Positions 24,920-51,446 of a DNA stretch of 64,000 nucleotides are shown piece by piece; the first letter of the stretch is position 1; every line of letters begins with the position of its first letter. The position numbers were made by a program, and so were the translations under genes. Source of the DNA: a virus (Duplodnaviria; Caudoviricetes); IMG/VR virus record IMGVR_UViG_2595698882_000001, positions 1 to 64,000 of that record; one strand, given 5' to 3'. The notes under the pieces were generated by a model. The model worked only from the letters and a program-made list of their open reading frames with translations, was not told the origin of the DNA and searched no databases.

Positions 24920-25296
24920 CGTTAATACCGCCTCTTTCGAGGTACTTTAACACTGCTCTAGGCAGTCGGACTAGACTATATCTTAACCCTACGTTTTGGT
25001 GTAGGGTTCCCTGTATTACGGTCTACAATTACACGGTTATCTCATCGTAAACCTCTTATCCGGTTCTAGCCCTACCCATTTGTAGGGTTACCCGGAAGTT
25101 TAGTCGTTGAACCTTCCTCTACTTGAGAGGCTTGGCTGCGGATTACCCTATCCTTAACCTTTTTACTATACCGTTGTGATTAGCAACGCCCATATCTATG
25201 TCACCATGATATGTTAGTAGCTAAGGCTCTAAGGGATTCCCCGCAATTAACAGGGTTTATTCACTAATCATTACTGATTAGGGGGGCAGATATTTT
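24920..25296 (-). mobile_element. group I self-splicing intron, 377 nt, no ORF
   Basis: P AATTGCGGGGAA, Q AATCCGCAGC, R GTTCAACGACTA and S AAGATATAGTCT elements; P1 GGGGU/GCCCC with U-G at the splice site; terminal G; splicing restores GIDWG-NRHW. Confidence 0.93.
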
Positions 25297-26454
25297 ACCC
25301 CAGTCAATACCTACAGAAATAAATCTGTAGTTTCCTCTGTTCATCAACGGCTCAGGTAAGTCTTCCCTGATATTTTTGTATACATCATCATCTTGTACCG
25401 CTAACGCTACGTCTTGATATGGGTGACCTAAAACGTAGTTGTAAAAATGCTGCTTAGACTTAGCTTTTAACTCCTTACGTTTTAGTTCATCCGCGCTAAT
25501 CCAGACTGCGTTCATCTGAGTAATCAAGTAACCTCGTGTACCTCCTCCGTCTTCTGTACGAGAAGGATGTTTAGCAACCCACTCTCCGTTATACCATCTA
25601 TCTAGCGGTTTACCACAGTTTTGACAGATGAATCGGAATGTTCCTTCTTTAACTGTCTTAGCTCGTACATCTACCCCATCCTCATCTAGACATTCAATGT
25701 TTTTCTCGTAGTCTAGCTGCTGCCTAAGACCACATCGGTCGCATTTGTGCATATACACTCGTTGGTCAGATTGATTGAACAGGGCATGTATGCCGTAGTC
25801 TGGAACTGTAGGGGTTGACCATCTACGTACTACCCCAAAGCTAGAGGACGACATAGACTCCATTGCGGAAATTTCCGCACTAGCAGATACACGGTCGTAC
25901 TCGTCTAAAGAAAGGTAGTCAATATCTACCCCCTCCACAGACGCCCCTTTAGAAGCAGACCGGAAAATAAGGAAACTATTTCTTATTTTCTTTTTCTTGA
26001 GGGAGTTTACATTAGTATCTAGGATAGAAGCATAGTAACCTTCGTTTAAAACTGGGTCTAAACGAGTTGCTACAAATTCTTCCATCTGCCTGTTCGTAGG
26101 GAATGTGTACAGACATTTTACCCCAGCATAGCTGTTTACGTCAGCAAAGTGCAGCATCTCTGCTACCCCTATCTCGGATAAACCAAGCTGACGTGATTTA
26201 ATGACAATCTTGTCCTTGTGCTGATCGTTGATGATATCCACTTGCCAAGGTCTATGTGATTGGGCTTTTGTAGAGTCTTGACCACTTATGTGGAAAGTGA
26301 TAGGGTGGTTCTTTACTTTATGGTGCTTTAACAGGTAGGAAGAGGGGTGGAGCATGGTAAGCACGTACACCAGCTCTTCCTTAGTTAAGTCTGTCCGACC
26401 GAAGGTCTGTTTTGCTACATTACTTATCATTTTTCCATCAATATTGTCCAGCAT
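25297..26454 (-). CDS. terL: terminase large subunit, exon 1 (ATPase domain)
   Basis: KSRQLGLSE Walker A, LDEYD Walker B, STPT; the spliced product is 598 aa. Confidence 0.93.
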
Positions 26455-29619: not shown

Positions 29620-29976
29620 TCAGTTGTCCTCCTCAAGCTGCCGCAGAATGTGTAGTTCATAGTCCCTGATTTCTTTTTCTCTTCTCTCCCTTATTACTTT
29701 TTCTACAGGGTTTTCTGGAGGGTGTGTAAGCGGTTTACAAGGTTTTAAAGGCTCACCCTGTACTTTAATACATTTAGGCATCAACTGATCTCTGGTGCGT
29801 GTTTGTATCATCTTTGATTTCCTAATTAACTCTGCTAGTACCTTTAAACCTTCCTGATATTTCTGCATACTTTCGGATATCCTAGCCTCTGTCGCTTCAT
29901 AAGAGCTATCAGGAGCTTTGGACCGTTTTACAATTACTCCTGACTTTACAGATTTATTGCCGTTCTTCTCCATCAT
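29620..29976 (-). CDS. hypothetical protein
   Basis: Coupled to the HTH gene. Confidence 0.7.
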   Translation of the reverse strand: MMEKNGNKSVKSGVIVKRSKAPDSSYEATEARISESMQKYQEGLKVLAELIRKSKMIQTRTRDQLMPKCIKVQGEPLKPCKPLTHPPENPVEKVIRERREKEIRDYELHILRQLEEDN

Positions 29977-30284
29977 TCATCCACCCTTTTGTTGTTGACA
30001 TCTTTAAATTTTTCTAATTCTAAAATTTCCTCTTCAGTAAGGTCCTTAAACAACTCCCGGTAACCTACATTAAACAAATCCTCTAACTCCTCAAGTTTCT
30101 GTCTTCTAGGGAACTTCTCTCCAGTTTCCCAGTAGCTGATTGTGGAGAAGTTGACCCCTAGCTTAGCAGCTAAGCTGTAAATGGTGTACCCATGATCTAA
30201 TCTGTGCTTCCGTAAACGTTTAATCACTTTTCCTTTACTCATGTTGTTATCTCCTTTAGATGTTTTAATTTTTGTCTGTGTCAA
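29973..30284 (-). CDS. XRE/Cro-family HTH transcriptional regulator
   Basis: LR..R...G.T...LA..LGV..STIS.WE.G...P...L..L...F.V; two in-frame starts with RBS (TTG 30284, ATG 30242). Confidence 0.92.
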   Translation of the reverse strand: MTQTKIKTSKGDNNMSKGKVIKRLRKHRLDHGYTIYSLAAKLGVNFSTISYWETGEKFPRRQKLEELEDLFNVGYRELFKDLTEEEILELEKFKDVNNKRVDE

Positions 30285-30332
30285 TTCCTTTTCCTCCTTT
30301 GAGTATTTTGTGTCTGTTTTGTTGTTGACTAC

Positions 30333-30361
30333 ATCGTATCATGGTATTGATTGAAAGTCAA
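30333..30361 (-). promoter_or_regulatory. sigmaA promoter of the HTH operon, with a TTGAC-N5-ATCAA site
   Basis: TTGACTttcaATCAA...TGaTACGAT, 17-bp spacer. Confidence 0.75.
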
Positions 30362-30399
30362 CACGTTTTATAAAATTATTTTATGTAACTGACTCTAGA

Positions 30400-30815
30400 T
30401 TATTCTTGTCATATTTTAATTACTGCTGTATCAAGGTTTGTAAACCATACTGACATTGGTTTTGTCCTATTTTATTTTTATCCCTCCTGTATTTAATATA
30501 TTTATTATTACTAATAAGTGTTATTAAATAATAAACAGGGAGGAGTTAAAATAAAATAGGCATTTTTAAAACTGACATAATTAACTCCCTTTTGTCAGGT
30601 AAGGATTTAAAATAGGCATTACCTTCTGAGATACAAAACCTTACTGACATATTAGCCCTTAAATATGTTATGTCCTATTTTAATCCCTTGATACATAAGG
30701 CTTTCTGACATCTTTTAGATACTTTTTGTCATATTTTATTTTAAGGGGTTCTGTATTTATATATTTATATATTCTATATATTATTAAAGTTATTTTTAAT
30801 ACTTAGTATTATAAT
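30400..30815. repeat. AT-rich region with three units of TG(T)C(A/C)TATTTTA pairs 56 bp apart; candidate origin
   Basis: Motifs at 30407/30463 and 30671/30727 (forward) and 30552/30608 (inverted); CTGACAT four times. Confidence 0.65.
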
Positions 30816-30892
30816 GATATAGGCTGTAAGAAAATGGAAATACGTAGAGATCGAGCAGCGAAAAAAAAAATGAAAAAAGTTATCCCAAACAC

Positions 30893-30921
30893 TTGTCAGG
30901 AGTTACAGAGTATGTTATAGT
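30893..30921 (+). promoter_or_regulatory. promoter for the RNA cluster
   Basis: TTGTCA-ggagttacag...TGtTATAGT, 17-bp spacer; second extended -10 TGtTATAAT at ~31082. Confidence 0.65.
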
Positions 30922-30958
30922 ATAGTTAAGGTTAAGGAAGCCTACAAATACACACCGT

Positions 30959-31036
30959 ATTTTGACCCCTGAACCACTTGATGCTGAGACTACCTCCTGA
31001 TCGGTTTCATTGTCAGGTGGTACAGACGGTCAAAAA
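30959..31036 (+). ncRNA. hairpin RNA with anti-SD loop (ACCUCCU)
   Basis: TTTGACC/GGTCAAA, ACCACTTGATG/TGTCAGGTGGT and TGAGAC/GTTTCA stems with G-U pairs. Confidence 0.55.
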
Positions 31037-31099
31037 AAAATGAAAATATTTACTCTGTAACGTTTAAAAAACACGAATATGTGTTATAATAGTAATACA

Positions 31100-31222
31100 C
31101 CGTCTAGTTCAACGGCGAACTCGATGTGCTGAGACTGACTAGTTCAACTGGTGAACTCGTGGTCTCAACCCGCTCCAAGGTTTTTTGTTCCTCTCCTTGT
31201 TTTTTCCTTGGAGCTTCTTTTT
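31100..31222 (+). ncRNA. small RNA: duplicated CTAGTTCAAC..GAACTCG hairpins plus a stem with a C/U-rich loop and U-tail
   Basis: GCTCCAAGG/CCTTGGAGC stem; loop contains UUCCUCUCCUU. Confidence 0.5.
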
Positions 31223-31229
31223 AAATCAT

Positions 31230-31316
31230 GGATAGGTATCCAAGCGGTAAAGGGGTCTGGTTGCTAACCAGATAGTAGGCTGAGGTCTAGCGGAGGTTCG
31301 AATCCTCTCCTATCCG
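31230..31316 (+). tRNA. tRNA-Ser(GCT)
   Basis: GGATAGG/CCTATCC acceptor, TCTGG-TTGCTAA-CCAGA arm, long variable arm, GTTCGAATC; CCA not encoded. Confidence 0.92.
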
Positions 31317-31322
31317 TAAACT

Positions 31323-31419
31323 AAGTAGGTTTTCATTGAGCACACAAGCGGCGTCTCTGTCCATTTCCATTGTCGCCTCCTCCCCCTTTTCAGCTTGTGT
31401 GTTCAATGAGCATCTGCTT
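31323..31419 (+). ncRNA. long hairpin RNA with C-rich anti-SD/anti-AUG loop
   Basis: 26 of 27 bp paired (4 G-U); loop ...CCATTTCCATTGTCGCCTCCTCCCCCTTTT. Confidence 0.65.
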
Positions 31420-31569
31420 TTAGACTTTTTCAAGTATGGCTCTTTAACTATAGGTGACAAAGTCGAGGTATTGGTCTCCTCAGCTGAATACGCTTTTCCT
31501 ACCGTAAAGGTGGTACGATCGACACCGGATACGATGGATAAGGCTAAAGGCTAAAAACCACTTAATCAT

Positions 31570-31641
31570 TGTCCCATAGCTCAATGGTAGAGCGCCCGAC
31601 TGTTAATCGGAAGGTTGCTGGTTCGAGCCCAGCTGGGACAG
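31570..31641 (+). tRNA. tRNA-Asn(GTT)
   Basis: TGTCCCA/TGGGACA acceptor, CTGTTAA anticodon loop, GTTCGAG T-loop. Confidence 0.93.
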
Positions 31642-31668
31642 TTAACCTTATAATGAGGAGGTGATTGC

Positions 31669-32019
31669 ATGAAAAAGGAAGCAATTTACGTCTTCAATTA
31701 TAACGGACAGACAGTAACTGCTGATGCTTATGTTGATCCTATAGAGAATCGTAGGTATCGAGGTACTAGAGGGAACCCTCTTCAAATTGCACTGAACTAT
31801 AAGGGTACTGGTGCCACTGAGACACAAACTATTGTTGCAGAATTGGTGGAAGACGTGCCTGTACCAGACGCACCTGCCTACTCCGTTAATACACACGCAC
31901 TTATTTTCTACTTGCCAGATGTAGACGCCTATGCCAAGGGGCTGTACTATGAGCTCAATGAAGGCGACTCAGGTGTCCTCCATCCTGACTTTACAGTAGA
32001 TTTTCTAGACAAGATTTAA
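31669..32019 (+). CDS. hypothetical protein inside the tRNA cluster
   Basis: Perfect GAGGAGGTGA RBS. Confidence 0.8.
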   Translation: MKKEAIYVFNYNGQTVTADAYVDPIENRRYRGTRGNPLQIALNYKGTGATETQTIVAELVEDVPVPDAPAYSVNTHALIFYLPDVDAYAKGLYYELNEGDSGVLHPDFTVDFLDKI

Positions 32020-32030
32020 TTTCATTGGGA

Positions 32031-32218
32031 ACCGTGGCTGTTCGTTTTGGGAGCAGCAGTCTTTAATGGCAGGGTACTTGACGTTGGGTTAGGGTATCCA
32101 AACGCAGAGTAGGTGGACCATGAAACTACTTCAATTCTGAGGTCGTTTTTCCGGCTTCATACGTACTACTCATGTGTACAACAGAGCCTACACGCCTCTT
32201 AACAATGCGGACCACGGT
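32031..32218 (+). ncRNA. multi-branched structured RNA of unknown family
   Basis: Closing stem ACCGTGG/CCACGGT enclosing about five hairpins; no ORF. Confidence 0.5.
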
Positions 32219-32234
32219 AGGACGTTATAGCTCG

Positions 32235-32309
32235 CTGGACGATGTATAATTTGTCAGTATCTATACCGGTTAAGGGTCTGATAAACGAGGTTAGATTCCT
32301 CGGTCCAGA
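32235..32309 (+). ncRNA. tRNA-like RNA lacking canonical D and anticodon arms
   Basis: CTGGAC/GTCCAG acceptor; T-arm CGAGG-TTAGATT-CCTCG. Confidence 0.55.
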
Positions 32310-32369
32310 AAAGCAGAGTTTATTCACTAGGCTAATACGTTAGTAGGGTTCGGGGTTAGCCCGGACGAC

Positions 32370-32489
32370 TGTGTGGTGGCGGAAAAGGTAGACGCAATAA
32401 CCCTCGGTACGGGCACGGTCATGAACGTGATACAGAGGGCTGGGACAAATTTACCCGTACATGCTAGGTGCAAATCCTAGCCCACACGT
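32370..32489 (+). ncRNA. tRNA-like RNA with expanded anticodon region
   Basis: GTGTGG/CCACAC acceptor, Leu-type D-arm TGGCGGAAAAGGTAGACGC, T-arm CTAGG-TGCAAAT-CCTAG. Confidence 0.65.
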
Positions 32490-32773
32490 ATAATGCCCTT
32501 ATAAGCAATCAGCTTATTATGCGGTCAAAAAATCTATTGGTGGCACACTGTTATAGATGGAGTGTGTGAGCAGCTAAGGGAGTAGCTAGAAGCTATGTGA
32601 GGGTCAAGGGCTGTATCCATGTGGGAGTGGATATTATTTTATTATCTCCGGCGCATAACGGGTAGCTGCGATCCATGGAAGCTGTTTCGGGTATACACGG
32701 GCAGTGGAAAAAAGGAGCGTTTCCCAGGGGAGGTGAAAACCTTAAAAGAGTCTTAAATCCCCTGACCAAACAT

Positions 32774-32851
32774 GCGGGGTGAGGATGATATCAACTCAGT
32801 AGGTACCCCGGGTATATGCTGAGTGACGGGGTTCGATTCCCCGGTCCCGCT
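32774..32851 (+). ncRNA. tRNA-like RNA with unpaired D-loop and long non-anticodon stem
   Basis: GCGGGGT/GTCCCGC acceptor, ACTCAGTA/TGCTGAGT stem, T-arm CGGGG-TTCGATT-CCCCG. Confidence 0.65.
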
Positions 32852-32860
32852 ACAATATTT

Positions 32861-32931
32861 TGCCGAGTAGCCAAGTGGTAAGGCAGCGGGCTTTGAACTC
32901 GCTATCGTTGGTTCGATCCCAGCCTCGGCAG
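32861..32931 (+). tRNA. tRNA-Gln(TTG)
   Basis: TGCCGAG/CTCGGCA acceptor, CTTTGAA loop, GTTCGATC. Confidence 0.93.
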
Positions 32932-32938
32932 TACACGT

Positions 32939-33028
32939 TTTTAGAGCTTAGCAGGGTCCCACACCGACACCTCCTAAAAAGCTTCAGCTCCTTGTTTCGG
33001 GTGGTAGGGACGGAGCAGGCTCTAGAAG
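32939..33028 (+). ncRNA. hairpin RNA with CACCUCCU anti-SD loop
   Basis: TAGAGCTT/AGGCTCTA, GTCCC/GGGAC and CCGA/TCGG stems. Confidence 0.55.
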
Positions 33029-33035
33029 CGTTCTT

Positions 33036-33107
33036 GGCTCCATAGTGCAGCGGTTAACACGCCCGCCTGTCACGTGGGTAGCATGGGTTCGAATCCCGTT
33101 GGAGCCG
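33036..33107 (+). tRNA. tRNA-Asp(GTC)
   Basis: GGCTCCA/TGGAGCC acceptor, CTGTCAC loop, GTTCGAATC. Confidence 0.93.
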
Positions 33108-33273
33108 TTAAGTAACCATATCGGACTGTCTCGTTCTCTGCGGGGAGAACATTCGAGGTGAAAGACCTCTACAGACAGGTGACAGATGGTGAGGGCACTT
33201 TCCCAACAGTTGCCGCAGATGAGGGAAGTGAGGCGATGATAGGAAGAAGAGGTGGGTCCTTCGCCATTAATAA

Positions 33274-33357
33274 GGGTGAGCGGTAACGTTGGAGAGTTAC
33301 GGCAGACTGTAAATCTGCTCCCTTCGGGGTTAGAGTGTTCGAATCACTCCTTACCCA
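33274..33357 (+). tRNA. tRNA-Tyr(GTA)
   Basis: GGGTGAG/CTTACCC acceptor, GCAGA-CTGTAAA-TCTGC arm, variable arm. Confidence 0.92.
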
Positions 33358-33385
33358 TTGAACACTGTGCATTATCTCCTTTTTG

Positions 33386-33418
33386 AGACTCCGTAAGTAA
33401 TCTACGGAGTCTTTTTTG
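33386..33418 (+). terminator. terminator of the RNA cluster
   Basis: AGACTCCGTA/TACGGAGTCT stem followed by a T-run. Confidence 0.85.
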
Positions 33419-33529
33419 CGTTCCCTTATATTATTACGTATGTGACTGTGCAGCTGCTGGGAGAGGTCTATATGGTATAATTAAAATAGAGACTCAATAG
33501 TTCTATATTATACATATAAGGAGGCAGCC

Positions 33530-35675: not shown

Positions 35676-36500
35676 CTGAAAACTTTACCCGGAAGAGTTG
35701 ACCTATTTGTTCCTATTGACTTAGGAGAATCCATCAAGAAGAGCAACGAAAACTCAACAGAGAAATCTTGGTACTTACGTGGGTATGCAACAACTCCTCA
35801 CCTAGACTTACAGGATGATATTGTAGACCCTAACGGGATTGACATTAGTCACCTTGTACAGCATGGCTACATCAACTACGAACACCAACAAGGAGAAGAA
35901 TTTATAATCGGAGCTCCTACAGATGGTACATACGTAGACCCTGATGTCGGTCTGTACTTGGAAGCTAAACTCTACAAAAACAATCCGTATGCTAAGAAGG
36001 TATGGGAACTTGCTTCCAACATTGAAAAGTCAGGGATAAACCGAACACTAGGATTCTCAATCGAAGGCTATGCCAAAGAGAGAGACAAAAATGATCCTAG
36101 AATCATCAAGAGTACATACATAACAAACGTTGCTGTAACTACTAGCCCAGCTAACCCTAACGCTACTTGGGAAGCCTTTATGAAGAGCTTCTTAACTGGT
36201 CACGGTATTTCCCCGGAGACTCAAGTAGATGGAGCCGCACTAAGAGCTGAGTCTTTTGCAAGAAGCTTATATAACCTCTCGTGGGCTTATAAAGCTTTAG
36301 GTGATCCTGAAGACTTTGACAAGCTGTGGAAAGAGGTCGGCGATTACTTAGACTCGATGGACCGATACACCCCTGAGAGTGCCGTAATGTTCCTTCAGTT
36401 GTTCAAAGGATATTCTCGTAATGAGGCTGTATCTAAGATTGATCAACTAATGCAGCAAAACGATAATGGAAATAAGAAAGGAGAAACAACGAATGGGTAA
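35676..36500 (+). CDS. prohead protease (probable CTG start)
   Basis: GYATT..LDLQDD, YINYEH and LGFSIEG motifs extend upstream of the tracked ORF; GGGAGG RBS 8 nt before CTG; in-frame stop at 35649. Confidence 0.88.
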   Translation: MKTLPGRVDLFVPIDLGESIKKSNENSTEKSWYLRGYATTPHLDLQDDIVDPNGIDISHLVQHGYINYEHQQGEEFIIGAPTDGTYVDPDVGLYLEAKLYKNNPYAKKVWELASNIEKSGINRTLGFSIEGYAKERDKNDPRIIKSTYITNVAVTTSPANPNATWEAFMKSFLTGHGISPETQVDGAALRAESFARSLYNLSWAYKALGDPEDFDKLWKEVGDYLDSMDRYTPESAVMFLQLFKGYSRNEAVSKIDQLMQQNDNGNKKGETTNG

Positions 36501-37422
36501 ACAATCATTTTCTAAGTTGACAGAAGATTTAGAAAAAATGAATGAACAAGTTTCTAAGTCTGAAGAGGCAGCTGACGCAGAAAGCAAGTTAGCTGAAGAC
36601 GGTCTGACAGTGGAACCTGTAGCAGGTAAAGTCTCTGATGAAGGTTCTGAGCCTGTAAAAGAAGAGCCAGCTGAAGAGCCAGAAGTTGTTGAAGTTACAC
36701 CTGAGCAACCTGCACCAGAGGAAGAGTCTCCAGAAGATGAACCTAAAGAAGATGAGCCTCAAGAAGATAAATCATCTGAGGATGATAAAGGAGACGATGA
36801 GCCAGTGTCTAAAGCTGATGAGAAAGAAGAAAAAGAAGACAAGAAGGAAGATAAGAAAAAAGAGTCTAAGGACGGTAAAAAGGAAGAAAAGAAAGACGAG
36901 GATGTAAAGAAATCTGAGTCTGACGAAATTTCTGTATCGGGTTCTGAAATTCTTGGTGCTTTTGAATCTATCGTAAAATCCTTCTCTTCTCTTAAAGAGC
37001 AGCAAAACGGACTAGAAGGTCGTCTGTCCAGCATCGAAAAGTCCATTACTGATCTTATGAACCTTGTAGTTAAATCTGAGGATGAAGAAGTCAAAGAAGA
37101 CAAGGAGAAAGAAGAGGTAGAAGAGGCTGAGCAGGTTGAAAAGAGCAGCCCTGAGCTGTCAGAAGGTAAAGCTGAGACTTTCATCTCCAAGTCCACAGAA
37201 GGGGATGTATCAGTTCCTGAAGCTACTCAAGAAGAGGAAGTTGAGGAAGCGCCATTCAACCCATATGCACATATTGATACAGCTACTGATTACTATATCC
37301 AACATGCTAGTGAGTGGGATAGAGGACAACAATCTAGCTTCCGTGAAGCTATCCACCGTGTAAAACGAGGACAGCCAACACAAGCGGATATCGCTTTATT
37401 TAAAGAAATTGTTGAAAATTAA
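36493..37422 (+). CDS. acidic scaffold-like head protein
   Basis: E/K-rich, between protease and capsid, multiple xxKS sites. Confidence 0.75.
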   Translation: MGKQSFSKLTEDLEKMNEQVSKSEEAADAESKLAEDGLTVEPVAGKVSDEGSEPVKEEPAEEPEVVEVTPEQPAPEEESPEDEPKEDEPQEDKSSEDDKGDDEPVSKADEKEEKEDKKEDKKKESKDGKKEEKKDEDVKKSESDEISVSGSEILGAFESIVKSFSSLKEQQNGLEGRLSSIEKSITDLMNLVVKSEDEEVKEDKEKEEVEEAEQVEKSSPELSEGKAETFISKSTEGDVSVPEATQEEEVEEAPFNPYAHIDTATDYYIQHASEWDRGQQSSFREAIHRVKRGQPTQADIALFKEIVEN

Positions 37423-37477: not shown

Positions 37478-37512
37478 GGTAGTGGGAGTTCCTCCTCCTA
37501 GCTCCCACTATC
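37478..37512 (+). promoter_or_regulatory. capsid 5'-leader hairpin with CCUCCUCCU loop
   Basis: 13-bp stem (2 G-U) downstream of the late promoter motif TGCTATATTA at ~37440. Confidence 0.55.
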
Positions 37513-37574: not shown

Positions 37575-39020
37575 ATGAACGGAAACAATCTTGAAAAGAA
37601 TCAAGAGAAAGTTCAACGCAAGCTTCCAGCAGTAGCTGAACAAGTTCTTGAAACAATGTCGAAGTCATTTACAACTGGTTACGGTATTACACCAGACACT
37701 CAACAGGATGCAGCAGCTTTAAGACGTGAGTTCCTTGACAACGAAGTCAAAATGTTAGCATTTAACAACAGCGACTTCACAATCTACCCAATGATTAACA
37801 AGAAACAAGTAGACAGCACAGTTGTCAAATATGCTCAGTTCAACCAACACGGTCGTACTGGTCACAGCCGTTTCGTTCGTGAGGTAGGAGTAGCTTCTAT
37901 CAACGATCCTAACATCCGTCAAAAAACCGTACAAATGAAATTCTTAAGTGATACTAAGCAACAATCTATCGCTGCAAGCCTTGTGAACAACATCGCTGAT
38001 CCAATGACTATCTTGACTGAAGATGCGATTGCAGTTATCGCAAAATCAATCGAGTGGGCAATTTTCTACGGTGACGCAAGCTTATCAGCAGACCTTGATC
38101 CGCAAAACGGTATTGAGTTCGATGGACTTGCTAAGTTGATCGACCAAGGTTCTAACGTGTTAGACATTCGTGGGCAAAGCCTTTCTGAAGCTATCCTTAA
38201 CACTGCGGCTATCGTAGTCGGTAAAGGTTATGGTCGAGCTACAGATGCGTTCATGCCTATCGGTGTAATGGCTGACTTCACAAACAACCTTCTTGATCGT
38301 CAGCGTGTACTGCAACCTGCTTCTTCTGGCGGATTCGCAACTGGTTTCGCTGTAAACCAATTCTTGTCTACACGAGGCGCTATCAACCTTCATGGCTCTA
38401 CTATCATGGAGAACGATAACATCCTTATGGAAGATGTCCTACCAGCACAAAACGCTCCACTACCTCCACAAAATGTAGCGGCAGCCGTTAAAACTGGTGC
38501 AGGTGGTAAGTTTGAGAACGAAGTTGCTAACAAGCAAACTACTCTTGCTTACAAAGTTGTTGTTTCTTCTGACGAAGCTGAATCTGTTGCTTCTCAAGAG
38601 GTTACTGCGGCTATCACAAACGCTACAGACGCTGTAGAGTTGACTGTAACTCTTCAACCAATGTATCAAGCGCAGCCACAGTTCATCTCAGTATACCGTA
38701 AAGGTGCTACTACTGGTCATTACTTCTTGATCGCTCGTGTACCTGCATCTAAGATGGTTAACAACCAAATCGTCTTTACAGATGTTAACGACAGTATCCC
38801 TGAGACAACTGATGTCTTCCTTGGAGAAATGAGCCCACAAGTTCTTAGCTTGCTTGAGCTTCTTCCAATGATGAAGTTACCATTGGCTCAAATGAACGCT
38901 ACTGTAACGTTCTCAGTATTATGGTACGGCGCTCTTGCTCTGTACGCTCCTAAGAAATGGGTACATATCAAGAACGTTAAGTACATCCCAGCTATCGCAG
39001 CTGACGTAAAAGTCGGTTAA
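37575..39020 (+). CDS. major capsid protein
   Basis: KSFTTGYGITPDTQ..AAALRRE.L signature of Herelleviridae MCP. Confidence 0.96.
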   Translation: MNGNNLEKNQEKVQRKLPAVAEQVLETMSKSFTTGYGITPDTQQDAAALRREFLDNEVKMLAFNNSDFTIYPMINKKQVDSTVVKYAQFNQHGRTGHSRFVREVGVASINDPNIRQKTVQMKFLSDTKQQSIAASLVNNIADPMTILTEDAIAVIAKSIEWAIFYGDASLSADLDPQNGIEFDGLAKLIDQGSNVLDIRGQSLSEAILNTAAIVVGKGYGRATDAFMPIGVMADFTNNLLDRQRVLQPASSGGFATGFAVNQFLSTRGAINLHGSTIMENDNILMEDVLPAQNAPLPPQNVAAAVKTGAGGKFENEVANKQTTLAYKVVVSSDEAESVASQEVTAAITNATDAVELTVTLQPMYQAQPQFISVYRKGATTGHYFLIARVPASKMVNNQIVFTDVNDSIPETTDVFLGEMSPQVLSLLELLPMMKLPLAQMNATVTFSVLWYGALALYAPKKWVHIKNVKYIPAIAADVKVG

Positions 39021-50600: not shown

Positions 50601-51446
50601 AAAGACCGAGCAGAGAATAAGAAAGCAGATAATCTTGCTCTAGAGAAAGCCAACATCAAGAGATATGAAGCGTTACTAGATCAGGCAGACCAGCTGCTAA
50701 ACAAAGCTCGCCTCCAGAATGGTATTATGGGTAGCTTAGGTGGAGCAGATGCTAGTGGATCAGGAGGAGCTGGTGTAGGTGGTAGCACTGGTAAACTCAA
50801 GATTCTTTCTGGAAATCAGAAGTGGGCAAACCCTAATGATCTTAAAAACTCAGACTTAGGATACACGGACGGTAAGCTTACAGCAGAAGACCTCGATAAG
50901 TGGATCGAGTCTAAAGCTCCTGAAGGTTCTATGATGAGAGGTATGGGTTCCGCCTTCCTGAAAGCAGGACAGGAATCTGGTCTTGACCCTCGTTACTTGA
51001 TTGCACATGCTGCACAAGAAACAGGTTGGGGTACTTCTAACATCCTTAAGGATAAGAACAACTGGTTCGGTATCGGTGCCTTCGATAACTCCCCACACGC
51101 CTCCGCCAAGACGTTTGGTGGGAAGCAGCAAGGTATCATTGATGGTGCGAAGTGGATAGCCCAGAACTACTACAGTAAAGGGAACACAACTCTTGACAAG
51201 ATGAAGAAAGCCGGGTACGCCACAGACCCGCAGTGGGCTAACAACATTAGTAATATCATGAAGAACGCACCTACGGGTACGGGAAGCGTGAAAGTGGAAT
51301 CCACAATCAACGTAAACGTCAAAGGTGGGGACGATGTAGCTAAGAAGGTTACCAGCAACGCCCAGATGAAGTCCTTAGCAAACCAAGTAAACAACGCCAT
51401 TTACGGCTCTATGAACTATTACTCCAAAGAAGTGAAGAGGGTATAA
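47649..51446 (+). CDS. tape measure protein with C-terminal glucosaminidase domain
   Basis: 1265 aa helical, Gly/Ala-rich segment; LIAHAAQETGWG...NNWFGIGAFD...YATDP.WA. Confidence 0.9.
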   Translation: MANVEKYIFGVDADTSKAVSKLQQINKLMDQIDGVRNRGMGEYFTTTQKDMDKSMRSMSQLTKLYRSLDRELSEIQRKMEDVSGRLTIPKGATKEQEREIKRLKQQMAEQSQAAISQQRALQSEYNKTLRKFRELSTFQQNSSKNFKHVFSSNDLFNLPTGAQNFNRAKSVMQAMASEADGVSSKIDEVKAKIQSVNKLDRRAESLTRRAEASKYMSYQQASNYRRDYRTVTQEYGAERESNANAMARLGQERTTLHNRVQEIQTKANATQQDIDRKIGMQQTIDAIDKEIQARMELDRVLQRTTQNMKSYEQRVTKDGGVEVKPERGTFLGMMYERAPAIGLALGGAAAGVAGGLYHQGAQLNRGIRSDVVSIGQRTDSDNWTETIRDNALNAGLKDRLGFGGQEMLAFQNNYLSNAGYKGMDDLNSAMTSQAIFSRTTGVDSDTTRDFFDTAFSTGAVNGSQVKDIQNAFIGAIKQSGMEGREKDQLKALQGLLDGVSRGRSMTNDEVMNVMGMQSVLASTGVRSLSGEKGGQLLSDLNEGIRQSIDNPTARLIFGQGTKYQGLEGRFALRKQLEKGISDVDNVKSIAAYAQSQADTEGGQNEVFAQAVRSLLGTDITSEQTEGLMGLYRDGKLTDETLKGYVDSNKSTGSKTADERLSKYQDSKEATSNQSEATTEKQATQLYDYGNLLREANSALSGLNPLIYTTTAALAGLTAAAAGAAGSFVMSSLLRGAIGGRMGSGGSILGPLSRGRGGGTTGGGGGGFFGALRSSVGRYTDPYARAGGLPNTGPAGGASSSSGGLWSRITGGAGATAAGAGTAAAGAEAAAGAGAGAAGAGAAAGAASGGSKVLSTLGKVGGVLSKVALPLSIIAGVGSIAAAPEDKKGEATGSAAGGIGGGLAGAAAGAAIGSVVPVVGTAIGGLIGGVAGSFGGSSLGGWVGSMFDPKTAEAAELPETEKAKGADEKIVNDLDKQVDKETTNTKDRAENKKADNLALEKANIKRYEALLDQADQLLNKARLQNGIMGSLGGADASGSGGAGVGGSTGKLKILSGNQKWANPNDLKNSDLGYTDGKLTAEDLDKWIESKAPEGSMMRGMGSAFLKAGQESGLDPRYLIAHAAQETGWGTSNILKDKNNWFGIGAFDNSPHASAKTFGGKQQGIIDGAKWIAQNYYSKGNTTLDKMKKAGYATDPQWANNISNIMKNAPTGTGSVKVESTINVNVKGGDDVAKKVTSNAQMKSLANQVNNAIYGSMNYYSKEVKRV

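Follow-up and report, generated by a model that had tools for sequence, protein, structure and literature searches.

What do the long hairpins between the transfer RNA (tRNA) genes of a large Bacillus phage do, and do their C-rich loops, which resemble the 3' end of 16S rRNA, have a partner? The stretch of DNA analyzed here (the window, 64,000 nt) comprises bases 1 to 64000 of a 156,648-bp virus record with direct terminal repeats and belongs to a Nitunavirus, an SPO1-like Bacillus subtilis phage (Herelleviridae, Bastillevirinae). An initial annotation of the window had reported four unrelated stems, here called H1 to H4, each with a loop resembling an anti-Shine-Dalgarno (anti-SD) sequence. 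We compared the cluster with those of 23 related phages and one Okubovirus. We find that the hairpins are genuine RNA structures, specific to one strand, within an early tRNA/noncoding RNA (ncRNA) operon, and that the loop of H1 varies in step with a 10-nt complement, site B, in the wHTH gene of the replication module, whose mRNA it may contact. The hairpins and the two promoters nearest to them are as follows:

30893 to 30921, + strand: promoter P1, sigma-A type (TTGTCA, 17 nt, TG-n-TATAGT), with an A-tract upstream
30960 to 31035, + strand: H1, hairpin of approximately 29 bp with bulges and an 11-nt loop (ACCUCCUGAUC) at 30992 to 31002
31063 to 31090, + strand: promoter P2, sigma-A type (TTTAAA, 16 nt, TG-n-TATAAT), with an A-tract upstream
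31172 to 31214, + strand: H2, 9-bp GC-rich stem with a 25-nt U/C-rich loop (31181 to 31205), followed by UUCUUUUU
31323 to 31419, + strand: H3, 26- to 27-bp stem with four G·U pairs and a 43-nt apical region (31350 to 31392)
32935 to 33031, + strand: H4, long imperfect hairpin occupying the spacer between tRNA-Gln and tRNA-Asp

Strand-specific hairpins and the conserved loop of H1

We compared the minimum folding energy of each hairpin with those of 200 shuffled sequences, and the + strand with the - strand. On the + strand, H1 folds at -34.3 kcal/mol (z -5.5; - strand, -28.2), H2 at -15.1 (z -4.6; - strand, -14.6), H3 at -42.3 (z -8.7; - strand, -29.8), and H4 at -39.5 (z -3.9; - strand, -34.8), and none of the 200 shuffles matched any of the four. 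All four hairpins fold better on the strand that carries the five tRNAs, and the four G·U pairs in the H3 stem, from which the initial annotation had placed the RNA on the tRNA strand, were confirmed. An unpaired C/U-rich loop on a stable stem is clean in H1, in H2 (25 nt, UUUUUUGUUCCUCUCCUUGUUUUUU), and in H3, where CCUCCUCCCCCUUUU is unpaired on the 3' side of the apical region. In the minimum-energy fold of H4, CACCUCCU (32967 to 32974) is partly paired with GGGUGG, hence there is no clean loop; a second motif, CUCCUUGUUU, is common to H4 and the H2 loop. The hairpins and their strand were therefore correctly described, and so was the anti-SD loop of H1, but the claim of four such loops was overstated for H2, where the likeness is weak, and for the partly paired H4.

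Identity to the 16S rRNA 3' end was assessed against a Bacillus sp. contig (L255) rather than B. subtilis itself; Rfam places positions 1499 to 1533 of the small-subunit rRNA model at the first 35 bases of this contig. The longest identity is 7 nt in H1, 8 nt in H4, and 6 nt in both H2 and H3. The + strand of the 156,648-bp genome contains CCTCC 128 times, and 7-mers of the 16S tail occur at 109 + strand places genome-wide (approximately 0.7 per kb) and at three sites (four overlapping positions) in the cluster of approximately 2.5 kb. Motif counts alone show no enrichment over the genome background and do not go beyond chance. The evidence beyond chance comes from relatives and not from the window by itself.

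Standard searches did not assign the hairpins to a known class. Neither ARAGORN nor Rfam (RF00005) called H1 to H4 as tRNAs; the only tRNAs called were the five of the cluster. The 4227 Rfam models, including RsaE/RoxS, FsrA, and RNAIII, gave no match at either the gathering score or the E-value threshold over 30959 to 31419 or 32939 to 33028, and the only Rfam signal in the hairpin regions was a chance-level match to a small nucleolar RNA (E 0.47) on the - strand. A terminator scan called 33385 to 33413 and two minor sites, and none of H1 to H4, as intrinsic terminators; the H2 stem is followed by UUCUUUUU, but its loop has 25 nt compared to 3 to 8 nt in intrinsic terminators, and H1 is followed by an A-run.

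H1 is almost identical in 12 of 12 Nitunavirus loci. In Jeonjuvirus (BSP38 and BSP36) and Grisebachstrassevirus (nine phages), P1 and its leader, ACACACCGTAT, precede a hairpin that carries the H1 loop on a different stem; P1 and the leader are retained in Goe3, BSP38, 000TH008, and KKP_4050. A covariance model built from the Nitunavirus copies alone found H1 on the + strand in 17 of 18 sources, missing it only in Okubovirus Goe19, and in two of five more distant records (000TH008 and KKP_4050); it found nothing in Goe8, Bobb, or Bcp1. The two distant copies represent a fourth version of the stem and retain CACCUCCU (loop beginning AACACCUCCUAGAAC), so ACCUCCU is kept in the H1 loop of four lineages with four different stem sequences. 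Between genera, stem identity is 23 to 32 of 58 (40 to 55%), and loop identity is 11 of 11 in three genera. When only + strand rows are counted (nine distinct sequences), 17 of 29 pairs changed on both sides, and 94.4% of cells are paired. In a count that includes six reverse-strand rows, the covariation score is 0.395, compared to at most 0.137 for slid partners, with 0 of 500 shuffles as high and 89.1% paired.

Folding and covariation, two of the checks that the initial annotation had proposed, support the stems of H1 and, as described below, H3. That annotation had also named conserved stems with unconserved loops as the pattern that would speak against a function of the loops: at H1 we found the opposite, a loop that is kept on a stem that varies, and at H3 the loop varies. 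Searching IMG/VR with a loop pattern for new H1 variants gave five matches, three of them known phages and two chance matches in GC-rich coding DNA; a promoter-plus-leader pattern gave four matches, one of which is new and of the Siophivirus type; and none of 61 metagenome loci was an H1.

Co-variation of the H1 loop with a site in the wHTH gene

We searched whole records for the complement of the H1 loop and found site B (GATCAGGNGG; pattern GAUCAGGNGG), which the genome of the window and all 23 related records carry approximately 46 kb downstream of H1. Site B and its gene lie outside the window, and their coordinates refer to the window's own whole genome record:

76729 to 78429, + strand: wHTH gene (566 aa, early, with its own sigma-A-type promoter), which holds site B
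76955 to 76964, + strand: site B, 10-nt complement of the H1 loop

The H1 loop bases CCUCCUGAUC are complementary to GAUCAGGAGG at codons 76 to 79 of the wHTH gene (R-S-G-G; AGA UCA GGA GGN). The gene has a match to phrog_1098 ("HTH DNA binding protein") and a weak one to phrog_270 ("replication initiation protein"), its product has a Pfam HTH_Crp_2 domain at residues 21 to 72, and it sits in the replication module, flanked by a DNA helicase gene and a DnaB-like helicase gene. H1 and site B are both on the + strand and 46 kb apart, and H1 is not a cis-encoded antisense RNA. Compared with the phage's own H1 loop, site B gives 23 Watson-Crick matches and one G·U pair.

The evidence that carries this pairing comes from natural variants. 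Four Grisebachstrassevirus phages (Goe25, Goe17, BSP12, and BSP14), accounting for 4 of 27 H1 copies, have a CCCCC variant of the loop (CCCCCUGAUCG). Among the nine phages of this genus, a CCCCC loop goes with a GGGGG site B in four and a CCUCC loop with GGAGG in four; the ninth, the recombinant BvP, combines a CCUCC loop with a GGGGG site B, which makes a G·U pair. An alignment of the site-B region of these nine phages has 613 columns, 48 of them variable, and the only column that separates the CCCCC-loop phages from the rest is the one facing the loop base that varies. Phages have reassorted their H1 and site-B regions. The site-B region of Goe25 differs at one to four positions from those of Goe3, BM-P1, and Goe7, and Goe25 is the only one of these with G; compared to BM-P1, it differs at 2 of 613 positions, one of which is the base facing the variable loop position. 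Similarly, the site-B region of BSP14 is nearest to that of Goe24 (10 differences), yet the two differ at this base (G in BSP14, A in Goe24), in keeping with the loop of BSP14. That U·G is seen at this position and C·A never is fits RNA pairing. Phages without detectable H1 spell the site-B residues otherwise (CGC UCG GGC GGC in Goe8, CGU UCG AAA GGA in Bobb), and in Bcp1, in which the H1 model finds nothing, the corresponding codons are CGU GGG GGU GGA.

The Shine-Dalgarno (SD) sequences of the CCCCC-loop phages, for example that of open reading frame 116 (ORF116) in the tRNA cluster, remain GGAGG. A changed loop with unchanged SD sequences argues against a generic anti-SD role for H1 and for a specific, co-changing partner. 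The translation-silencing battery that had been proposed for this locus is thus partly supported and needs refining: the C/U-rich loops and the operon setting hold, and a generic anti-SD role appears unlikely for H1.

On this evidence, our preferred reading is that H1 is a trans-acting base-pairing RNA whose loop contacts the mRNA of the wHTH gene, a reading that we consider nearly but not quite evenly balanced against its competitors taken together. Several observations weigh against it. The predicted pairing at site B (-19.6 kcal/mol) is no energy outlier, with three other + strand sites equal or better in a genome-wide scan, and site B is internal to the coding region, at a distance of 226 nt from its start. 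As the base that varies is the synonymous third position of a Gly codon and the site is intragenic, chance together with shared ancestry could account for the pattern. In 000TH008/Siophivirus, the loop (CACCUCCUAGAAC) and site B (AGAGCAGGAGG) have only six to seven complementary bases. The H1 alignment was fitted to its model, which favors the pairing counts given above, and target searches for H2, H3, and H4 turned up no partner that was both specific and conserved. Four RNA-library runs out of 20 proved to be assembled contigs (28 of 30 bins were covered in two runs of one study), which carry no information on transcription, RNA ends, or strand and were left out. Elsewhere in the wHTH gene of 000TH008/Siophivirus, at nt 471 to 483, there is an 8- to 9-nt complement of the loop, which was found post hoc and may be due to chance. 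Folding of the mRNA around site B gave no conserved accessible structure.

Two other pairings of H1 were considered and set aside. Site A (window position 50758) encodes the G-S-G-G linker of a Gly-rich protein in a region that is low in complexity and variable; it is mismatched (GGCGG) in Goe3, Goe24, Goe7, and BvP and absent in BSP38, BSP36, and BM-P1, and we treat it as a chance match. Pairing in cis between H1 and the ORF116 SD shows no co-variation.

A mechanism built on the preferred reading would run as follows. The four hairpins would be parts of one early phage RNA operon, in which the long stems serve both as stable modules and as processing spacers. Cleavage at tRNA 5' and 3' ends, and probably RNase III, would free the hairpins; H3 and H4 abut tRNA ends, so processing by RNase P and RNase Z would release them. 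We infer this release from the position of the hairpins and from published work on SP82 early RNA (PMC4838370, PMC1935012). The exposed C/U-rich loops would then base-pair with purine-rich, GGAGG-type sites in mRNA, as C-rich loops do in Firmicutes, and H1 would modulate the translation or stability of the wHTH mRNA. The outcome is a hypothesis that can be addressed by mutation, namely a 10-nt contact between loop and mRNA for which natural compensatory variants exist.

Copies of the 16S tail and possible alternative roles of the hairpins

P2 occurs in Nitunavirus, Jeonjuvirus, and 000TH008/Siophivirus, and Grisebachstrassevirus lacks both P2 and H2. In BSP38/BSP36 and in 000TH008/KKP_4050, P2 is followed by a hairpin with an unrelated stem and a large loop that holds AUCACCUCCUUUC, an exact 13-nt copy of the 16S rRNA 3' end of the Bacillus sp. 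contig; in the loop of KKP_4050, the CACCUCC core is duplicated. The H2 loop of the window (UUCCUCUCCUU), which is invariant in the seven Nitunavirus rows aligned with it, reads as a degenerate version and is only weakly anti-SD-like. Judged by these alignments, the 13-nt copy is the strongest support for an anti-SD reading, though it comes from relatives and not from the window. An exact copy of the 16S 3' end in hairpin loops is a striking sequence fact in its own right.

The stem of H3 has 26 pairs within Nitunavirus, of which two changed on both sides and two on one side, so that covariation among these sequences supports the structure; the inner stems differ in Goe3 and BSP38. The H3 loop is variable and retains a C-rich run, which is CCCCCUUU in the window, Grisebachstrassevirus, and 000TH008, CCCCCAUUU in 278BB001-type phages, and CUUCUCUUUUU in BSP38. 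H4 is present in 8 of 12 Nitunavirus loci, and its variation is confined to near the tip. BSP10, phiNIT1, and BSP18 lack it and have a tRNA gene directly before tRNA-Asp instead; the fourth locus without H4 is that of SPG24, which has no annotation. By this distribution, H4 is dispensable.

The search for loop targets that the initial annotation had suggested gave site B for H1 and no conserved partner for the other three hairpins. A pairing of the H2 loop with the start region of the DnaB-like helicase gene (15 to 17 bp with one bulge, -24.4 kcal/mol) does not stand out genome-wide, and several other sites score alike. A candidate H3 target, AAAGGGGG, has a single + strand occurrence in the genome of the window, in a start region (51549), and is found at no conserved position in five other records. 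Pairing of H4 with site C (TTTAGGAGG; position 77202 of the whole genome record, in the wHTH gene) was rejected: this site is GGTGG in 043JT007 and 278BB001 despite the presence of H4, and GGAGG in phiNIT1 and BSP18, which lack H4. In the host search, the 22-mer antisense of the H3 loop had no match in 185,579 species genomes, and GATCAGGAGGT-N3-10-ATG gave at least 120 scattered matches, with no member of the B. subtilis group among the matches listed, which is uninformative.

The first alternative to a specific H1 partner is that the hairpins are generic mimics of the 16S 3' end, acting as a sponge for SD sequences, including that of ORF116, or as a decoy for a protein or nuclease that recognizes the 16S tail. 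The gene in question lies within the cluster:

31669 to 32019, + strand: ORF116 (phrog_18938), starting 27 nt after tRNA-Asn

The tRNA/ncRNA cluster includes ORF116 in Nitunavirus, Jeonjuvirus, and Grisebachstrassevirus, and a similar ORF occurs in an Okubovirus. ORF116 matches no Pfam family, and its protein-atlas scores (at most 0.82) are at chance level. Its SD, AGGAGGUGAU, is the longest SD complement in the genome and the sole 10-nt complement of the 16S tail before a start codon. This SD could act as a 5' stabilizer after tRNA processing, and an interaction in cis with the tail-like loops is no more than conceivable.

A generic mimic would explain why the 13-nt copy occurs at the H2 position in two lineages on unrelated stems and why its core is doubled in KKP_4050, and the retention of ACCUCCU in H1 of four lineages and the unique SD of ORF116 also favor it. 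It is harder to reconcile with the CCCCC loop in 4 of 27 H1 copies while the ORF116 SD remains GGAGG, with H2 and H3 loops that in the window match the tail over 6 nt only, with an H4 motif that is partly paired, and with motif counts in the cluster that do not exceed the genome background. In addition, phage mRNAs use the same SD sequences, so a general sponge would hit the phage too. As an account of all four hairpins we consider this alternative improbable; a role as 16S-tail mimic stays live, especially for the H2-position hairpins in other genera. The two roles may also be combined: nuclease-resistant hairpins made from the strongest early promoters would copy the 16S tail, exactly over 13 nt in some genera, and include both riboregulators (H1 and the wHTH gene) and 16S-tail decoys, the latter capturing either SD sequences or a host factor or toxin that recognizes the anti-SD end of the ribosome. 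We regard this joint account as rather unlikely, though not so weak as to be set aside.

Alternatively, the hairpins could be purely structural, that is, spacers, signals for RNases III, P, and Z, and protective hairpins, in which case loop conservation would reflect protein contacts or chance and site B would be a coincidence. Long stems with internal loops in SPO1-type early transcripts are known substrates of Bs-RNase III (PMC4838370, PMC1935012); H3 and H4 abut tRNA ends, a tRNA can replace H4, and the energy scan gave no outlier targets. A structural role would not by itself keep the H1 loop invariant on stems that are only 40 to 55% identical across lineages, nor would it produce a 13-nt copy of the 16S tail that recurs in unrelated stems, and it leaves the 1-in-613-column pattern at site B unexplained. 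We consider it unlikely to be the whole account.

A third possibility is an element that acts at the DNA level, with the 10-bp GATCAGGRGG serving as a protein-binding site or with the hairpin forming in single-stranded DNA, for example during replication. The motif is present in H1 and in a replication-module gene and is altered in both in one clade, and the gene holding site B encodes an HTH DNA-binding protein. However, the G·U pairs and the better + strand energies indicate RNA, H1 lies directly downstream of a strong promoter, and the motif is present in a single copy only at each place. In BvP, the combination of GGAGG in H1 with GGGGG at site B would break a shared DNA motif, whereas RNA accommodates it as a G·U pair. 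This possibility is very improbable.

The initial annotation had also read the H3 loop as the reverse complement of an initiation region, and the reading itself is correct (31350 to 31392 gives GGAGGAGG-cgaca-ATGGAAATGGACAGA); the - strand frame at H3 is not conserved, with a 1-nt deletion in 278BB001 and its kin, a 29-nt insertion in BSP18, and a frame of two codons in Goe3. We dismiss the idea that the CCUCC loops are simply the antisense of SD sequences of small - strand ORFs (e.g., BSP10_201 and BSP18_064): the H3 reading GGAGGAGG-5 nt-ATG and the - strand coding sequences annotated there in some records speak for it, but the frame is broken or different in the phages just named, no start codon lies at a usable distance from H1, and the promoters point along the + strand. 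Structural roles, DNA-level motifs, and - strand peptides are thus less likely than RNA pairing, in that order.

The operon, its surroundings, and known systems

The hairpins belong to an operon in which all elements lie on the + strand in the order P1, H1, P2, two short repeat hairpins, H2, tRNA-Ser, H3, a conserved stretch of 150 nt, tRNA-Asn, ORF116, approximately 840 nt of noncoding sequence, tRNA-Gln, H4, tRNA-Asp, tRNA-Tyr, and a terminator-like hairpin. Its 5' neighbor is a divergent XRE-type regulator gene, and its 3' neighbor is the portal and protease module. In a BLAST comparison of 30800 to 33450 with phage records, 426 records matched, 22 of which span at least 80% of the query, and the closest relatives were Bacillus phages SBSphiJ4 and SBSphiJ5 (95.5% identity). 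Phages of the SBSphiJ type, together with B. subtilis BEST7003, already serve as standard laboratory models in work on phage defense. The remaining elements of the operon are as follows:

31098 to 31160, + strand: two short hairpins, a direct repeat of CTAGTTCAAC-GG-GAACTCG units, whose copy number differs among phages
31229 to 31317, + strand: tRNA-Ser(GCU)
31420 to 31568, + strand: 150-nt noncoding stretch between H3 and tRNA-Asn, strongly conserved in three genera
31569 to 31642, + strand: tRNA-Asn(GUU)
32860 to 32932, + strand: tRNA-Gln(UUG)
33035 to 33108, + strand: tRNA-Asp(GUC)
33274 to 33357, + strand: tRNA-Tyr(GUA)
33385 to 33413, + strand: intrinsic terminator-like hairpin with a U-run, at the end of the RNA operon

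Several parts of this region are of interest in themselves. The unit of the repeat at 31098 to 31160 is approximately 30 nt, and each copy forms a small D-arm-like hairpin (AGTTC-loop-GAACT); SPG24 and BSP18 have a single copy, 043JT007 has a variant, and the repeat may be a decayed 5' half of a tRNA. The stretch at 31420 to 31568 is conserved across the three genera better than the hairpin stems are. A 51-aa coding sequence is annotated there in some records, yet its frame is not retained; the consensus fold of the alignment has 40 pairs with little covariation, and no Rfam model matches the stretch. The noncoding 840 nt at 32020 to 32860, between ORF116 and tRNA-Gln, contain three pieces resembling a T-arm plus acceptor (approximately 32289 to 32309, 32468 to 32489, and 32828 to 32852), one of which belongs to an 80-nt tRNA-like fold around 32774 to 32852; neither ARAGORN nor Rfam called any of them. 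Relatives annotate tRNA-Met, tRNA-Gln, or "tRNA-OTHER" in the matching zone, and these differing annotations point to gain, loss, and decay of tRNA genes there.

Outside the operon, an AT-rich intergenic region of 600 bp (30285 to 30890) separates the XRE-type regulator gene (29973 to 30284, - strand) from P1; it has many short repeated motifs (CTGACAT/TTGTCA and AAAATAGGCAT) and several promoter-like sites and may be an operator or origin-like array. A further hairpin with a CCUCC loop (37478 to 37512, + strand; 12-nt loop, UUCCUCCUCCUA) lies on the transcribed strand outside the RNA cluster, in a gap of the head module between the ORF at 36466 to 37422 (phrog_1133) and the gene starting at 37576, and is possibly an extra member of the hairpin family. 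A group I catalytic intron is present at 24952 to 25306 (- strand; Rfam RF00028, 74.5 bits, full model). In Okubovirus Goe19, a GC-richer, structured noncoding region of 650 nt with tRNA-like T-arms (681 to 1340) sits upstream of tRNA-Asn and tRNA-Ser; the H1 model finds no H1 in it.

Regulatory RNAs with C-rich loops are well known in Firmicutes and include hairpins 7, 13, and 14 of Staphylococcus aureus RNAIII, RsaE/RoxS, and FsrA. These RNAs resemble the phage hairpins in having stable hairpins with C/U-rich loops that can pair in trans with G-rich sequences of the ribosome-binding-site type. In contrast, the phage hairpins have no Rfam homology to them, are phage-encoded within a tRNA operon, and have much longer stems, and the best-supported site of H1 is intragenic rather than at a start site. 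The tRNA cluster of phage T4 yields two stable small RNAs, species 1 and 2, which likewise are structured non-tRNA RNAs cotranscribed and coprocessed with phage tRNAs; we know of no report of an anti-SD-like loop or a target for either.

Processing of SP82/SPO1 early RNA was reportedly described by Panganiban and Whiteley in 1983 and by Mitra and Bechhofer in 1994. The hairpins processed by Bs-RNase III in this RNA have long stems with internal loops (PMC4838370, PMC1935012), and H1 to H4 resemble them in structure only, through long stems with bulges or internal loops; this work is not known to describe conserved anti-SD-like loops. Listeria phage CKA15 (P100-like), also a member of the Herelleviridae, has highly transcribed noncoding regions beside its tRNA genes (PMC12282133). 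In that phage, strong sigma-A-like early promoters drive abundant unannotated RNAs near tRNAs, and the authors of the report considered roles as small RNAs (sRNAs) and reported no UCCC motifs and no targets (PMC12282133). Herelleviridae are known for abundant, unexplained RNAs beside their tRNA genes (PMC12282133, PMC10383478). The initial annotation knew of no description of such hairpins; in searches of the literature on anti-SD and phage small RNAs, including those of Bacillus phages, and on Herelleviridae ncRNA, we likewise found no hairpins with 16S-tail-like loops and no pair of the H1/site-B type, and a search on SBSphiJ with RNA sequencing gave a single paper, which was unrelated. To our knowledge, few regulatory RNAs have been described from lytic phages of Gram-positive hosts. 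If the pairing proposed here is real, the tRNA clusters of large phages would double as sRNA factories, and mimicry of the 16S tail, whether as SD sponge or decoy, would be open to direct test.

A second comparison is offered by antisense RNAs of plasmids, such as CopA/CopT and RNAII of pMV158, which control rep genes by means of hairpin loops. They too use a hairpin loop to pair with the mRNA of a DNA-binding protein of a replication module, and the CUGA of the H1 loop fits, by inspection, the YUNR pattern. Unlike them, H1 lies 46 kb from its candidate target and is not antisense to it, and the complementarity is limited to 10 nt located 226 nt into the coding region. The phage hairpins have their nearest functional parallels in the C-rich-loop sRNAs of Firmicutes and the plasmid antisense RNAs and are members of neither group; should they prove to be riboregulators and decoys built on the 16S tail, they would constitute a new class of phage takeover or counter-defense RNA.

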